A stretch of DNA of 64,000 nucleotides from Patescibacteria group bacterium (GCA_034718535.1 JAYEMX010000064.1:4328-68327), one strand, 5' to 3'. Shown: positions 4,034-55,587, counted from the first letter of the stretch. Notes: generated from the letters alone by a model not told the origin. Translations and numbers: made by a program.

Positions 4034-4147
4034 TTATCCTTGACGCTGTTTATGGCGAGGGTTTTTACATATAACATAGACCGTTCCTTTACGACGGACT
4101 ATTTTGCAATTAATGCATCTTTTTTTAACTGAAGATTGTACTTTCAT
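4034..4147 (-). CDS. rpmJ: 50S ribosomal protein L36 (37 aa); not in the ORF track
   Basis: Reverse strand translates to [37 protein letters not shown], the canonical L36 zinc-ribbon. Confidence 0.9.
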
Positions 4148-4155
4148 AAAAAAAT

Positions 4156-4187
4156 CTCAAAACCAAGTAGTTTTAGCAGGTTTTGAG
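4156..4187 (-). terminator. 9-bp stem hairpin (ctcaaaacc/ggttttgag) followed on the minus strand by AUUUUUUU, ending 1 nt before the rpmJ AUG
   Basis: Read from sequence; intrinsic-terminator-like structure after infA. Confidence 0.45.
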
Positions 4188-4198
4188 GTTGTTAATTA

Positions 4199-4420
4199 TT
4201 ATTTTAATCTGTAAACGATTCGACCTTTGTCTTGATCGTAAGGAGATTGTTCGACTTTGACTTTATCTCCCGGAAGAACGCGAATTCTATACATTCGCAT
4301 TTTACCGCCCAAGTGACAAAAAATTGTTTTGTCTGAGTTGTTAATTTTTACTTTAAAAGTAGCGTTGGGAAGATTCTCAAGGACTACACCCTCTACTTCT
4401 ATAATGTCTTTCTGGCTCAT
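4199..4420 (-). CDS. infA: Translation initiation factor IF-1
   Basis: S1-like IF-1 sequence ([33 protein letters not shown]). Confidence 0.92.
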
Positions 4421-4463
4421 TATTGTTTTTATTATATCAGATAATTAATAATTTTTCTAACCC

Positions 4464-5201
4464 TCATGTCAATATGACAGGGTCAGACCCTGTCACTGCA
4501 ATGGTGTGTTCAAACATGCCGGCCATTTGACCGTCTTTAGTAACTATAGTCCAATTATCTTTTGGGTCGGTTTTGGTGTCGCTTGAACCTTTCATGTAGA
4601 TAACCTCAATGGCAATAGTCAGGCCCTTTTTTATAATAGGGGTGTTTTCGATTTTTCCCTCAAGAAAACAGGGAATCATGGGTGGTTCGTGAAGAGTCTT
4701 TCCAATACCGTGGCCGGTTAAATTTCTGGATACATTGTAGCCGTTAGATTCAATAGTGCCTTGAATCGCTTTTGAAATATGTCCAATATGATTATTTACT
4801 TTGGCTTGTTTAATAGCCAAATCCAGGGTTTTTTGGCCGATTTCCAGAAATTTTAATTTTTGAGGATAATCAGTCGGATTACCAACAATAAAACTAATAC
4901 ATGAATCTGTATTAAAACCCTTGTAAAGCATACCAATATCAATAGAAACAATATCGCCCAGTTTTAATTTTTTATCATCGGGAATACCGTGAACCAAGCC
5001 TTCATTTAAATTAATACAGGTGGCCCAAGAATAGCCGGGTACCATGGCGAAATTAGGTTTACCACCGGCTTTTTTAATTAAAGTTTGAGCCTTAGCTTCA
5101 ATTTGACTTAATTTAATTCCGGGTTTGGATATTTTTTTTAAGTCTTGTTTTATTTGGTGTAATTTAGCACCACCTTCGGCCATTAAATTGATTTTATTCA
5201 T
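4464..5201 (-). CDS. map: Methionine aminopeptidase type I
   Basis: MAP metal-binding motifs; the last 8 codons (VTGSDPVILT) are encoded by a REP-1 palindrome. Confidence 0.9.
   Translation of the reverse strand: MNKINLMAEGGAKLHQIKQDLKKISKPGIKLSQIEAKAQTLIKKAGGKPNFAMVPGYSWATCINLNEGLVHGIPDDKKLKLGDIVSIDIGMLYKGFNTDSCISFIVGNPTDYPQKLKFLEIGQKTLDLAIKQAKVNNHIGHISKAIQGTIESNGYNVSRNLTGHGIGKTLHEPPMIPCFLEGKIENTPIIKKGLTIAIEVIYMKGSSDTKTDPKDNWTIVTKDGQMAGMFEHTIAVTGSDPVILT
4475..4495. repeat. REP-1 palindrome tgacagggtcagaccctgtca, embedded in the map 3' coding end
   Basis: Perfect 10+1+10 palindrome identical to the copies flanking RAYT-1. Confidence 0.7.
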
Positions 5202-5764
5202 TGTGTTTGTTTTTTGATAAGATTGAGGGTGTGGTTAAGTTTTTTAAATAGTTTTTTGGTTTGTTTGTTATTTTTAATTAAAAAGTCAGCCATGGCAATT
5301 GGTCCGCCTTTGTGAAGGTTAACTAGTTCGGCGGTGTCACGTTGACTAGCTTGGGTTTTATTTAAAGAACGAACTGATCTTTTGGCTAAGCGCTGATAAC
5401 GAATTGATGGACGAGCATAAATACAAATAAGAGATAAGTGGTTAAATTTGCTTTTTAAATAAGTGTATTCTTCCCAAGAGTAAAGACCGTCTAAAAAAAC
5501 TATATTTGATTTTTTTAAAACTTTATCAATGCGAGGCTTAATTTTTATAGCCATGGCGGCCATACCAAGTTTTTTTCGAATATCTTCCCGATATTTTTTT
5601 TCATTAATTTCAGTTAAGGGAAGTCCCAGTTCTTTTAGGCCAATATCTGTTTGGTCGCCAAAACGTAAAACCGGATAGCCTTGTTTTTTAAAATGATCAC
5701 AACTGGTAGATTTACCGCTACCAGCCATGCCGACTATGGCAATGATAGTTTTTTTATCAGTCAT
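5198..5764 (-). CDS. P-loop NTPase, putative nucleotide or nucleoside kinase (extra kinase between adk and map)
   Basis: Walker A AIVGMAGSGKST; size and context resemble a small kinase; exact family not resolved. Confidence 0.4.
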   Translation of the reverse strand: MTDKKTIIAIVGMAGSGKSTSCDHFKKQGYPVLRFGDQTDIGLKELGLPLTEINEKKYREDIRKKLGMAAMAIKIKPRIDKVLKKSNIVFLDGLYSWEEYTYLKSKFNHLSLICIYARPSIRYQRLAKRSVRSLNKTQASQRDTAELVNLHKGGPIAMADFLIKNNKQTKKLFKKLNHTLNLIKKQTQ

Positions 5765-6332
5765 GATTAACTGTTTTTAATACATCTTGGTGAATGGCAG
5801 GTATAGATTGTTCACCGTTGATGGTTTTTAATAAATTGTTCTCTTTATAAAATTTTAGAACGTCAGCTTCTTGCTCGTGATAGATTTTTAAGCGAGAGGT
5901 AATTTTTTCTTTTGAGTCATGAAGAGAGCCATCCGGACTTTTTCGACCTCTTTTAAGTAAGCGTTTAATTGATTCCTCTTGTGAAATATCAAGATAAAAA
6001 ACAAAATTTACGGTTTTATTATATTTATTTAGTTTGTCAGCTAAAAATAAAGCTTGGGTGTGGTTTCTGGGAAAACCATCAATAATAAAACCAGACTGAA
6101 CATCCGGTTGTTTAAGTCTATGTTTCCATAAAACAAATATTTCCGAATCGGCCAAATAGTGGCCTGTTTTAAAAACTTCTCGACAAGAGTCACCCATTAT
6201 GCCTTGATCTTCGGCGGCATATTTTCTGACCAGGTCGCCTGAGCCCAAATAAGGAATATTAAGTTTTTTAGACAACATTTTGGCTTGAGTTGATTTGCCC
6301 GAGCCTTCCGGGCCGTAAAATATTATAAACAT
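5757..6332 (-). CDS. adk: Adenylate kinase
   Basis: FIIFYGPEGSGKSTQ P-loop, GFIIDGFPRN NMP-binding motif; position after secY. Confidence 0.88.
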   Translation of the reverse strand: MFIIFYGPEGSGKSTQAKMLSKKLNIPYLGSGDLVRKYAAEDQGIMGDSCREVFKTGHYLADSEIFVLWKHRLKQPDVQSGFIIDGFPRNHTQALFLADKLNKYNKTVNFVFYLDISQEESIKRLLKRGRKSPDGSLHDSKEKITSRLKIYHEQEADVLKFYKENNLLKTINGEQSIPAIHQDVLKTVNHD

Positions 6333-6338
6333 AGATAA

Positions 6339-6402
6339 TTAAGGTTCGGAATAAAAGGTTACGAACTCGAACTTTTTAAAGTTCGTAACCCTACAGAACC
6401 TT
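6339..6402. repeat. PAL element, composite: outer arms aaggttc/gaacctt enclose a perfect inner palindrome ggttacgaact...agttcgtaacc
   Basis: Fills the secY-adk spacer; ends 6 nt before the adk ATG. Confidence 0.6.
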
Positions 6403-10928: not shown

Positions 10929-10976
10929 GTTAAGGTTCGGAACTAGAACTTCGGAAAGTTCACGAACCTTAGGTTA
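10929..10976. repeat. PAL element, canonical 48-mer gttaaggttcggaactagaacttcggaaagttcacgaaccttaggtta
   Basis: Identical to the copies at 12539 and 13606 (the 13606 copy lacks the 3' ggtta); ends 6 nt from the rplE ATG. Confidence 0.75.
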
Positions 10977-11890: not shown

Positions 11891-11929
11891 GAAGGTTACG
11901 AACTCGAACTTCTCAAAGTTCGTAACCTT
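11891..11929. repeat. PAL element variant B (aaggttacgaact...agttcgtaacctt, 13-bp stem); overlaps the last 11 codons and stop of rpmC
   Basis: Palindrome read directly; the rpmC stop TAA lies inside the gtaacc arm. Confidence 0.65.
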
Positions 11930-12538: not shown

Positions 12539-12586
12539 GTTAAGGTTCGGAACTAGAACTTCGGAAAGTTCACGAACCTTAGGTTA
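12539..12586. repeat. PAL element, canonical 48-mer; its 3' end supplies the last codons and TAA stop of rpsC and its 5' end lies 8 nt from the rplP ATG
   Basis: Identical 48-mer to the copy at 10929. Confidence 0.75.
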
Positions 12587-13605: not shown

Positions 13606-13648
13606 GTTAAGGTTCGGAACTAGAACTTCGGAAAGTTCACGAACCTTA
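13606..13648. repeat. PAL element, canonical copy, 3 nt from the rplV ATG
   Basis: Identical to the 10929 and 12539 copies over the first 43 nt; lacks the 3' ggtta. Confidence 0.75.
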
Positions 13649-16952: not shown

Positions 16953-16996
16953 GTTAAGGTTCGGAACTTTTGAACACCTAAGAGTTCACGAACCTT
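16953..16996. repeat. PAL element variant, just 3' of the tuf stop
   Basis: gttaaggttcggaac...gttcacgaacctt arms. Confidence 0.65.
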
Positions 16997-17005
16997 GGTT
17001 TATAT

Positions 17006-18184
17006 TTATTTTAAGATCTTGGTAATAACACCGGCTCCGACAGTAAGTCCACCTTCACGAATAGCAAAGCGAAGACCTTCTTCTAAAGCAACTGGTTGAA
17101 TGAGTTTAGCGGTCATTTTAGCGCTGTCACCAGGCATAACCATTTCAACTCCCTTTGGTAAAATAACATCTCCGGTTACATCAGTAGTTCTGATATAAAA
17201 CTGAGGTTTGTATCCAGTAAAAAACGGAGTGTGGCGCCCACCTTCTTCTTTTGAAAGAATATAAATTTCCGCTTCAAACTCAGTAAAGGCTTTAACTGAA
17301 CCCGGTTTAGACAAAACCTGGCCCCTTTCAACGTCATCTTTTTCGACTCCGCGAAGAAGAATACCAACATTGTCACCAGCTTGACCATCTTCGAGTTGTT
17401 TTCTAAACATCTCGACTCCAGTAACAGTGGTTTTTTTAACCTTTTTTAAACCAATAATTTCGATTTCTTCACCGACTTTAATTTTACCCCTATCGATTCT
17501 ACCGGTAACGACTGTGCCTCTGCCTTTAATAGAAAAGACATCTTCAATCGCCATTAAAAAGGGTTTATCCAAATCTCTTTTTGGATCAGGAATATATTCA
17601 TCTAAAGCTTTCATGAGCTCTTCAATGGGTTTCTCAGCCTCGGCATCACCTTTCAAGGCTTTTAAGGCGCTACCTTTGATTATAGGAACATCTTTGCCTG
17701 GAAATTCGTATTTGGTTAAAAGTTCTCTGATTTCTTCTTCAACCAAATCAATCATTTCTTTGTCGTCTACCATGTCAACTTTGTTAAGGAAAACTACTAA
17801 AGCTGGAACATTAACTTGTTTGGCTAAAAGTAAATGTTCTCTGGTTTGAGGCATGGGGCCATCAGTAGCAGCGACGACTAAAATAGCACCGTCCATTTGA
17901 GCGGCACCGGTAATCATATTTTTAATGTAGTCTTTATGTCCCGGGCAATCGATATGAGCATAATGACGCTTATCTGTTTCATACTCTAAGTGAGAAATAG
18001 AAATGGTAATACCACGCTCTTTTTCTTCCGGAGAGTTATCAATCTCGTCAAATTTCATAGCATCTGCCATGTTCTTCTTTGCCAAATATTGAGTAATTGC
18101 GGCAGACAAAGTTGTCTTACCGTGATCGACATGACCAATGGTCCCGACGTTAAGATGGGGTTTGGTCCTTTTAAATGTTGCCAT
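17006..18184 (-). CDS. tuf: Elongation factor Tu
   Basis: [18 protein letters not shown] motifs; SD aaggagg upstream. Confidence 0.95.
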
Positions 18185-20546: not shown

Positions 20547-20574
20547 CTAGAGGAAACCTGTAAAATCCAGGTGG

Positions 20575-20597
20575 CCTACAAGGAGAGTCCTTGTAGG
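20575..20597. repeat. REP-2 palindrome cctacaaggagagtccttgtagg, 10 nt 3' of the rpsG stop, with a partial duplicated arm (ttttgtaggttt)
   Basis: Same 23-mer as the REP-2 copy after the RAYT-2 stop (55548..55574) and related to the other RAYT-2 copies. Confidence 0.7.
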
Positions 20598-20607
20598 TTT
20601 TGTAGGT

Positions 20608-37287: not shown

Positions 37288-37322
37288 ATGACAGTGACAG
37301 GGTCAGACCCTGTCACTGTCAT
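37288..37322. repeat. REP-1 extended perfect palindrome (35 nt: atgacagtgacagggtc a gaccctgtcactgtcat) upstream of RAYT-1
   Basis: Perfect 17+1+17 inverted repeat. Confidence 0.75.
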
Positions 37323-37334
37323 GTTCCCTGTGAT

Positions 37335-38030
37335 ATGATTATTAGGATGCCATCAAAGAATAGGAATAAAGTTTATAAAGAAAACGGATATTATCATGTT
37401 TATAATCGTGGGGTTGATAAACGAAAAATTTTTATGGATGAACAAGATTATGCTGTTTTTTTGCATTTACTAAAGTATTATCTTTCTCCACCCAGCAAAG
37501 AAGACAAACATCCTTTGTCGGATACTTCTACAGCTGTGATTAGGCCTAGGCCAATTGAAAATTTACATCAAGAGGTTAATTTACTTGCTTATTGTTTGAT
37601 GCCAAACCATTTTCATTTATTGATAAAACAAAAAAGTATTGATGGTATGACAAAACTAATTCATAAACTACTAACTATTTATTCAATGTATTTTAATAGG
37701 CGTCATAAACGTATTGGCCATTTGTTTCAAGGTTGTTATAAGGCAGTTTTAGCTGATAATGACGAGCAGGTTTTGCATCTATCTCGATATATACACCTTA
37801 ATCCAGTTAAGCTGACAGGGTCTGACCCTGTCAGGTGGCCATACTCAAGTTTGGCTTATTATTTAGGGGAGAAAACTGCTAAGTGGGTGAAACCTAAAGA
37901 AATACTTGAGTGTTTTGAAAAGATAGAAAAGAATAAACTAACAAATAAAAACTACAATTCTTATAAAGAATTTGTTTTTGACGATAAAAAAGATTCTAAA
38001 GAAACTGTTGGCAGGTTTTCTATTGATTGA
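37335..38030 (+). mobile_element. RAYT-type HUH tyrosine transposase (IS200/IS605 TnpA-like, Y1). The likely true start is MPSKN at 37347, matching the N-terminus of RAYT-2.
   Basis: YHVYNRG...LMPNHFHLL (HUH)...SRYIHLNPVK (catalytic Tyr); flanked by REP-1 copies and carrying one internally. Confidence 0.8.
37812..37834. repeat. REP-1 palindrome ctgacagggtctgaccctgtcag inside the RAYT-1 CDS, encoding LTGSDPVR
   Basis: Perfect palindrome, in-frame. Confidence 0.7.
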
Positions 38031-38048
38031 CAGGGTCAGACCCTGTCA
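38028..38048. repeat. REP-1 palindrome; its first 3 nt are the RAYT-1 TGA stop
   Basis: tgacagggtcagaccctgtca. Confidence 0.75.
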
Positions 38049-54818: not shown

Positions 54819-54847
54819 TTAGTGTCAAGGATTGTTTTGGCAATAAA

Positions 54848-54870
54848 CCTACAAGGAGAGTCCTTGAAGG
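54848..54870. repeat. REP-2 palindrome (cctacaaggagagtccttgaagg) upstream of RAYT-2
   Basis: Imperfect inverted arms around the agag centre. Confidence 0.65.
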
Positions 54871-55048
54871 CTTATACTTGAGGGTGTATACTGAATTTAA
54901 TGCCTTCAAAAAATGCTTTAAAAATCTATAAAGAAGATTCTTATTATCATATTTATAATCGAGGAGTGGCTAAGGCAAATATTTTTAAAGACAAAAAGGA
55001 TTATAAAGTTTTTCTTGATTATTTGAAAATATATTTATCTCCTGTCGA

Positions 55049-55071
55049 CCTACAAGGAGAGTCCTTGAAGG
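55049..55071. repeat. REP-2 copy inside the RAYT-2 CDS (encodes DLQGESLKV)
   Basis: cctacaaggagagtccttgaagg in-frame. Confidence 0.65.
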
Positions 55072-55352
55072 TTTCACCATCAAGAGAATTGAAAAATTAT
55101 TCAGATGAAATTATCTTGGTTGCTTATTGCTTAATGCCAAACCATTTTCACTTATTAATTCATCAAAAAAATAAGGATTCTATTAATTACTTTATGAGAT
55201 CTTTGGCTACAAAATATTCAAGATATTTTAATACTAGATATGATAGGGTTGGCCCATTATTTCAAGGTGTTTATAAAGCTGTTAAGGTTGACAATGAAGA
55301 TCAGTTGGTTTATTTGACTAAATATATTCATCGAAATCCTATTAATATCCTA

Positions 55353-55375
55353 CCTACGAGGAGAGTCCTTGTAGG
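55353..55375. repeat. REP-2 copy inside the RAYT-2 CDS (encodes LPTRRVLVGY), directly after the NPI(N) motif
   Basis: cctacgaggagagtccttgtagg in-frame. Confidence 0.65.
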
Positions 55376-55547
55376 TTATAAATACTCTAGTTATGGAAAT
55401 TACTTGGGATTATTTAAACAGGTCTGGGTAAAGCCAAATATGATTCTTGGATTGTTTTCTGCCTCTAATAAGTTATTTAGTTATAAAAGTTTTGTGGAAG
55501 AATTAGAAGAAGATTATAGTTCTATAAATAAAATTGTTCTTGATTAG

Positions 55548-55574
55548 CACCTACAAGGAGAGTCCTTGTAGGTG
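55548..55574. repeat. REP-2 perfect palindrome cacctacaaggagagtccttgtaggtg, 1 nt after the RAYT-2 TAG stop, followed by a partial arm duplication
   Basis: Read directly. Confidence 0.75.
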
Positions 55575-55587
55575 CTTGTAGGTTGAG

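Follow-up and report, generated by a model that had tools for sequence, protein, structure and literature searches.

How a short palindrome that also flanks a transposase gene came to lie within the last codons of a methionine aminopeptidase (MAP) gene, and whether it added residues to the protein or took the place of codons already there, is the question raised by this locus. The window analyzed here is a stretch of 64,000 nucleotides from a member of the Patescibacteria (CPR), and it contains a ribosomal-protein/spc-alpha gene cluster located on the minus strand. The original prediction, made from this DNA alone, held that the palindrome forms the 3′ coding end of map and suggested that it could be a readily tolerated in-frame insertion.

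A repeated palindrome in the last codons of map

The map gene (4464-5201, minus strand) encodes a protein of 245 residues that is assigned to the type I MAPs by the TIGR00500 equivalog profile (212.5 bits against a cut-off of 171, with profile positions 9-245 of 247 matched), by PF00557 (E = 3e-33), by 120 homologues and by alignment with PDB entries. The match is full length and includes the C-terminal EHT...ILT strand. The last eleven codons (GTG ACA GGG TCT GAC CCT GTC ATA TTG ACA TGA) specify VTGSDPVILT and the stop. The ORF is flanked by two kinase genes (5198-6332) and, downstream, by infA, encoding IF-1 (4199-4420, minus strand), an assignment based on PF01176 matches to the orthologous genes. 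In one relative (P0040), map and infA form a single ORF that encodes a 302-residue protein with Peptidase_M24 (MAP) and IF-1 domains, which might represent a read-through fusion or, at this same short spacer, an artefact of sequencing or annotation.

Within the map tail resides REP-1, a 21-nt palindrome of the form TGACAGGGTC[A/T]GACCCTGTCA. The map copy reads TGACAGGGTC-A-GACCCTGTCA (core palindrome TGACAGGGTCAGACCCTGTCA, 4475-4495) and on the minus (coding) strand occupies codons 236-242 of 245, which read (V)TGSDPV(I). A search of the window that allowed up to three mismatches recovered four copies of REP-1, all of them exact, and 100 dinucleotide-preserving shuffles gave none. The map copy is identical over 24 nt (4475-4498) to the copy at 37295-37318, with 27 of 29 nt matching in a longer alignment (family D7), and a repeat origin can be claimed for no more than this 24-nt block. 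Under the window's own codon usage, a peptide VTGSDPV would be spelled by these seven codons with a probability of 4.5e-6; among the codons of the tail, GTG (5% of Val codons), GGG (7.5% of Gly) and ACA (13% of Thr) are rare, and the REP-1 core is 57% G+C, compared with 35% for the window. The map stretch 4475-4495 is repeat-derived. Judged by its sequence, the ORF that carries it in frame appears functional, being intact and matched by the MAP model to its last residue.

It had also been proposed that the palindrome yields the same peptide on either strand, which holds for one of its three frames and fails for the other two. TGSDPV is open in both orientations because the centre base, A or T, gives TCA or TCT, both of which encode Ser. 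Frame 1 has TGA at its start on both strands, and frame 2 can be read through in one orientation only, as DRVRPC, being closed by a TGA stop in the opposite one. Both the TGSDPV and the DRVRPC readings are present in real ORFs.

The RAYT-1 locus and other palindrome families

The three remaining copies of REP-1 in the window surround or reside within the gene for a RAYT-like Y1 (HUH) transposase of 231 residues, RAYT-1 (37335-38030, plus strand). This ORF matches PF01797 (Y1_Tnp) at 38.8 bits, against a cut-off of 23, and the more specific NF047646 REP_Tyr_transpos model at 47 bits, below that model's cut-off of 80; it contains the HFH motif and the catalytic tyrosine motif YIHLNP, and a PDB sequence search with RAYT-1 returned no match. 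Upstream of the gene, REP-1 (core at 37295-37315) is extended to a 31-nt palindrome, GACAGTGACAGGGTCAGACCCTGTCACTGTC (37290-37320). A second copy, at 37813-37833, lies within the ORF and encodes LTGSDPVR (residues 160-167), in agreement with the earlier observation that the hexapeptide TGSDPV recurs inside RAYT-1. The third is situated at the 3′ end (38028-38048), where its first three bases, TGA, serve as the RAYT stop codon.

By definition, classical REPs lie outside genes, and they often form inverted doublets (REPINs). REP-1 resembles them in that it is a short (20-40 nt) stem-loop palindrome, perfect except for its unpaired centre base, and in that it is repeated and flanks a RAYT/Y1 transposase gene (copies at 37295 and 38028). 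It departs from them in several respects: the map copy is genic, half of the exact copies identified across genomes lie in ORFs, the RAYT gene itself also holds a copy, and all REP-1 copies are singletons rather than REPINs, the nearest pairs being 215-518 nt apart at the RAYT locus. The GTAG/CGTC tag of the REP super-families (Di Nocera et al., 2013) is absent from both the REP-1 core and the extended copy.

The window carries a second transposase ORF, RAYT-2 (54900-55547), which is 50% identical to RAYT-1. Each of the two ORFs contains its own cognate palindrome, and the codon position is the same in both, lying between the YIH.NP tyrosine motif and the YSS motif; the internal reading of RAYT-1, LTGSDPVR, derives from REP-1, and that of RAYT-2, ILPTRRVLVG, from a different repeat, of which RAYT-2 holds two internal copies (55344-55378 and 55040-55074). 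The repeat inside the transposase gene thus appears to co-vary with the repeat family; RAYT ORFs at L023:330-1049 and L042:3647-4381 were noted alongside for their internal copy. The family linked to RAYT-2, CCTACAAGGAGAGTCCTTGTAGG, is found at 438-472, 20566-20600, 54839-54873, 55040-55074, 55344-55378 and 55541-55575. Its two dispersed copies lie between genes, at 438 and 20566; the one at 55541 overlaps the region of the RAYT-2 stop. A third family, consisting of palindromes of about 36-40 nt (AAGGTT.CGAACT...AGTTCG.AACCTT), is scattered through the ribosomal-protein cluster (6355-6390, in the adk-secY spacer, and 10932-10967, 11892-11927, 12542-12577, 13609-13644 and 16972-17020), and no transposase partner for it was seen in the window.

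The repeat leaves the length of MAP unchanged

The C-termini of the 120 best MAP homologues conform to the pattern VT-x-x-G-P-x-[IV]LT at equal length and without gaps, with endings such as VTKSGPIILT, VTKNGPVILT, VTGSGPVILT and VTDSGPVILT. Two MAPs in the PDB, 3tb5 (tail ...EHSLAITKEGPRILT, ITKEGPRILT) and 1o0x (...EHTILITENGAEILT, ITENGAEILT), likewise align with the window MAP to its last residue with no gap. At the DNA level, the sister-clade genes of L004 (GTT ACA AAA TCC GGC CCC ATT ATT TTA ACT TAA) and L006 (GTC ACC AAA AAC GGC CCA GTT ATT CTA ACC TAG) align with the window codon for codon and match the repeat core at 12 of 21 positions at most; among sister and outgroup MAPs, 9-12 of 21 positions match. 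Relative to the sister clade, the repeat is accompanied by two substitutions (K to G, G to D) with no gain of residues, and neither the 120 homologues nor the PDB MAPs reveal any added residues. The Asp at the conserved Gly position is the derived state, as judged from the homologue C-termini. The overlaid codons form the turn of the last beta-hairpin, starting five residues past the conserved EHT motif, the Glu of which corresponds to the catalytic metal ligand E235 of E. coli MetAP.

The original prediction was correct in placing the palindrome within the last ten codons of map, but the ending itself is canonical and has the same length without the repeat. Three repeat-free relatives share the ten-residue pattern and its length, which essentially refutes the proposed insertion: P0004 (VTKSGPIILT, from GTT ACA AAA TCC GGC CCC ATT ATT), P0005 (VTKNGPVILT) and P0094 (VTDSGPVILT, from GTT ACG GAT AGC GGG CCA GTA ATT, with no similarity to the repeat). 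Since repeat-free MAPs possess the same ending at the same length, the repeat is a length-neutral overlay rather than an insertion.

It is thus likely that a copy of the lineage's RAYT-associated REP-1 overwrote seven map codons, codon for codon, at bases 4475-4495 (4475-4498 at most), leaving a normal MAP in which the repeat is a tolerated passenger, provided that the enzyme with the G-to-D change is active, as we assume. The one fully open frame of REP-1, T-G-S-D-P-V, is close to the native turn T-[K/G]-[S/N]-G-P-[V/I], and it is because of this resemblance that the protein would have kept its length and differ at two residues only. The repeat is probably tolerated rather than needed. In the mRNA, the 10-bp hairpin that it would form may protect the end of the spc-operon transcript, in the manner of REPs in E. 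coli.

Distribution of REP-1 and the direction of transfer

Repeat-derived, in frame and length-neutral, the map copy is common to an 81%-identical orthologue and absent from the sister clade. The orthologue (P0002, Candidatus Beckwithbacteria; L001, L002, L003, L008 and L044) carries the perfect 21-mer in the same codons and orientation as the window, within a 29-nt identical run, and the event would therefore date to the common ancestor of the window genome and this Beckwithbacteria relative, or earlier. Between the window and L001, 61% of third codon positions are identical over the whole gene. A metagenome scan for close MAP relatives yielded only L044, of the P0002 clade, the others being at most 43% identical, and gave no further states of the 3′ end.

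Beyond the window, a scan of one genome per species located the exact 21-mer at 42 places in 10 other genomes, all of the genomes compared being metagenome-assembled (MAGs): 16 in Beckwithbacteria JBDRQW01, 8 in CAZVYS01, 5 in Woesebacteria MGHG01 and the rest in other MAGs. CAZVYS01 has REP-1 and a RAYT with the same internal copy (YIHLNSAKLTGSDPVRWPYSS), but its map tail, AITKNGPVALTE, is without the repeat. The repeat family is thus much broader than the map copy, which indicates that the direction was probably from the repeat into map and not the reverse.

Four of the MAGs that carry the 21-mer are titled Gammaproteobacteria or Pseudomonadales (CAZVYS01, CAYIWI01, CAZVGS01 and CAYSID01; loci L069, which is CAZVYS010000001.1, L010, L012, L017, L018, L022, L023, L028, L030, L031 and L041). 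By gene content CAZVYS01 belongs to the Patescibacteria, since it has a CPR-type spc/alpha operon and a MAP that is 61% identical to that of the window, and its record title looks wrong.

A near-copy exists in the map gene of a different clade. At the same codons, P0010 (L043/L071) has TTACAGGGTCCGGCCCTGTCA, an agreement with REP-1 at 18 of 21 positions for which the peptide (VTGSGPVI) and codon usage of P0010 give a probability of 0.007. In L069 and L070, the relatives closest to it, no more than 9-10 of the 21 positions agree. No further copies of REP-1 were seen near the P0010 gene in 20.7 kb, most of which is the ribosomal-protein operon. This near-copy fits poorly with a single recent event; it could be an ancient copy that has since decayed, the product of a second capture or the result of recombination at the gene end. 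In near-copies generally, the changes gather at the centre and the stems are kept. The P0010 lineage is also distinguished by a PhzF-family gene on the opposite strand between map and infA (L043:6763-7593, which is L071:10763-11593), and directly past the map stop, on the map side of that gene, there are palindromes of the AACCTTCAAGG / CCTTGAAGGT type.

Length-neutral and added copies in other genes

Half of the exact copies beyond the window (21 of 42) are located within long ORFs, where 17 read TGSDPV and 4 read DRVRPC, and 13 of the 21 repeat-bearing ORFs are confirmed as real genes by PDB or Pfam matches. Matches in the PDB support recJ, the transketolase C subunit and rarA; those in Pfam support a ZIP transporter, a Mur ligase, pheT, an M29 peptidase, a polysaccharide flippase, a radical-SAM protein, a PMT glycosyltransferase, an O-antigen ligase and two LTD-domain proteins. 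The earlier suggestion that REP-1 is readily tolerated in frame is borne out by these genes, though in map itself it is not an insertion.

In recJ, protein alignment with relatives P0242-P0246 places the repeat-bearing sequence ..QILTDRVRPCQLIITVDNG (TDRVRPCQ) opposite TDKDGPCQ in the closest orthologues and IIKLKKPKPS in repeat-free ones. The spacing between conserved anchors is 37 residues in the repeat-bearing, closest and repeat-free orthologues alike, in a loop whose length varies between 32 and 52 residues over the family. The RecJ loop thus tolerates many lengths and is nonetheless unchanged, which argues that length neutrality is partly mechanistic rather than only the product of a selection filter. 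Each of the three residues that differ in the closest orthologues is one base change away from the repeat codon.

The transketolase C subunit has the repeat or a near-copy at the same loop in four lineages. L021 has a perfect match (21/21, LMTGSDPVTT) and belongs, with L075 and L076 (18/21 each), to a class that is two residues longer than the native loop; in L079 (19/21, L-TGSDLV-S) the loop is of native length. The closest relatives of the L021 protein are without the repeat. Measured against distant PDB homologues, the net difference in length is +3 for recJ, +2 for transketolase and -3 for rarA, and never +7, the gain in codons that an insertion of 21 nt would be expected to bring; for map, the net change is exactly zero.

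Genuine additions also occur. The ZIP transporter of L009 ends in ...HGHEVEKHDHGVTGSDPVSGV, past the point at which its L041 orthologue stops (...PHEH), and so its repeat resides in a C-terminal extension beyond the ancestral stop; another copy lies inside a 17-residue indel of a low-complexity linker. A LytR-like gene offers a comparison of a filled site (L023) with an empty one (the window), but the region is of low complexity and has an indel of about 60 nt, so that the inserted unit is ambiguous. Some ORFs display partial extra repeat halves beside a full copy, among them the O-antigen-ligase-like ORF at L028:2399-3559 (..YLGSDPVIRNVVCKKQLTGSDPVISAL..) and L041:2177-2866 (..VTGSDPVSDPVSELGG, from CACTGACAGGATCACTGACAGGGTCTGACCCTGTCAC), which suggests local duplication or slippage at repeat copies.

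Alternative explanations for the map copy

It is conceivable, though we consider it unlikely, that the palindrome at the 3′ end of map is under selection as a nucleic-acid element, either as a DNA site bound by RAYT or as an RNA hairpin, situated just ahead of the infA promoter, with a role in stabilizing or processing the secY-adk-map transcript at its 3′ end. Such an element would lie in the coding region because the 43-nt spacer is occupied by a promoter. Between the map stop and the infA start there is a promoter-like box (4431-4459, minus strand) consisting of TAGAAA, a 17-nt spacer and TATAAT with an upstream TG; it is conserved in the window, L001, L004 and L006, and it fills the map-infA spacer, leaving no room for an extragenic hairpin. 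The spacer corresponds to 4421-4463 in the window, L001:10739-10782, L004:10739-10796 and L006:10739-10784, and the box within it, TTATTAATTATCTGATATAAT, is identical in these four genomes, where coding DNA is only about 70-79% identical, and resembles an extended -10 promoter for infA.

The RNA of the palindrome is predicted to fold into a 10-bp stem with a 3-nt loop in both the window and L001, eight codons before the stop, and L004 has no hairpin at this position. REP hairpins at the 3′ ends of E. coli transcripts stabilize mRNA. Also consistent with selection are the 29-nt run that is identical between genomes whose third codon positions are 61% identical, and the retention of the stems ACAGGG/CC[C/T]TGT in near-copies elsewhere with a changed centre. 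Against it, sister lineages with the same operon layout lack a hairpin there. The hairpin is followed by ATATTGACATGA, with no T-run, and a scan for intrinsic terminators gave 0 terminator-like sites in 4100-4700; Rfam covariance models produced two chance-level matches only (E = 0.38 and 0.96), both of them away from the palindrome. Statistically, the conservation carries little weight: nine identical codons over the palindrome in the window and L001 have P ~0.016, and the same gene contains another identical run, of 34 nt. Conservation between these two genes is thus only mildly unusual, and by itself it does not separate a passenger from a selected element. The scattering of the same repeat through unrelated genes is a better fit for a passenger.

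We consider it very improbable that an in-frame insertion of REP-1 close to the 3′ end of map gave the protein a new C-terminal peptide. The repeat does cover codons 236-242 of 245, the ZIP transporter of L009 really has one in a C-terminal extension, and the RAYT stop codon comes from a repeat copy. For map, however, the gap-free alignments refute such an insertion: there is no change in length relative to more than 100 homologues or to the PDB structures, and VT....ILT is the family's own conserved ending, present in repeat-free relatives as VTKSGPIILT and VTDSGPVILT.

A reversal of direction, in which the map 3′ end was the source of the REP-1 family, is also very improbable. The native T-x-S-G-P-V does resemble the reading of the repeat, and the 18/21 near-palindrome of P0010 can be read as a "proto-repeat." Its rejection is based on distribution: the exact repeat occurs across Woesebacteria, Beckwithbacteria and other CPR MAGs but in map only in the window clade, CAZVYS01 has eight copies and a RAYT together with a repeat-free map, and sister and outgroup MAPs match the core at only 9-12 of 21 positions. 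Finally, coincidence, whereby ordinary MAP codons happen to spell a palindrome, is effectively excluded by the codon probability (4.5e-6 given peptide and local usage), by the lack of shuffle matches even at three mismatches and by the same event in a second genome, even though conservation of the residues V, T, G, P, V and I dictates nine of the palindrome's 21 positions.

Possible routes of replacement

Returning to the favored reading, in which REP-1 overwrote native codons of map, two routes can be envisaged. In the first, the repeat would have been inserted beside the similar native codons, creating a 21-nt tandem quasi-repeat (..CCT GTC AT / ..CCN ATC AT) from which replication slippage then deleted the native unit. 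In the second, a short templated conversion from another repeat copy would have achieved the exchange directly. Neither a +7-codon intermediate allele (such as ...VTGSDPVITKSGPIILT) nor a donor-recipient pair was seen, and for this reason the route of replacement is a matter of conjecture.

More speculatively, REP-1 could enter coding DNA not by addition but by length-preserving templated replacement of about 21 nt, its copies staying perfect through ongoing homogenization wherever a genome still has the RAYT and decaying from the centre outwards in other genomes. The exchange would then proceed by short-patch conversion or strand swap, possibly in a RAYT-dependent manner. We regard this proposal as doubtful; if true, the patches in map, transketolase and recJ would be natural footprints of the spread of a RAYT-linked repeat, a process that is not known to have been observed directly.

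Relation to known systems and implications

The arrangement of REP-1 has parallels in several known repeat systems. As in the REP/REPIN-RAYT systems of Escherichia and Pseudomonas (PMC5581495, PMC8049555), a Y1/HUH gene is flanked by a palindrome that is dispersed through the genome. Intragenic REPs of the GTAG/CGTC families are likewise short palindromes with a link to RAYT genes ("REPtrons"), and the ORFs concerned have been described as "interrupted," REP-encoded residues having been added to them, often as dimers of 20-30 aa (Di Nocera et al., 2013; PMC3733652). The map case differs from these in that one unit of 21 nt takes the place of native codons and leaves the length as it was, and REP-1 differs from those families in that it has neither a GTAG nor a CGTC tag and its hosts are CPR bacteria.

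Rickettsia palindromic elements (RPEs; Ogata et al., 2000, as summarized in PMC10969869 and PMC3733652) are also selfish palindromic repeats found in frame in many functional housekeeping genes at fold-compatible positions; they are about 100-150 bp long, add 30-50 residues and have no known transposase partner. REP-1 differs from them in size (21-31 nt), in its place on either side of a RAYT gene and in leaving the residue count of MAP unchanged. HIP1 of cyanobacteria (GCGATCGC) provides a further comparison, being a palindrome that is abundant in coding regions and leaves gene length unchanged, but it is only 8 nt long, arises by substitution and is tied to methyltransferases (PMC5861425, PMC4390886). 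For an exact palindrome of 21 nt, point mutation with no template is not a plausible origin.

That REPs can lie inside genes is not new (Di Nocera et al., 2013), and the same holds for Rickettsia RPEs; it is the codon-for-codon replacement that is unusual here. The segment of this essential enzyme that now holds the repeat is strongly conserved and lies five residues from the EHT motif, and the length-neutral pattern recurs in recJ and transketolase, with decayed copies at the same codons in other lineages. As a class, footprints of the replacement type would constrain the mechanism by which RAYT-linked repeats disseminate. In these genomes, moreover, a REP is as often genic as not, so that real genes would be treated wrongly by repeat masking or by annotation rules based on REPs.
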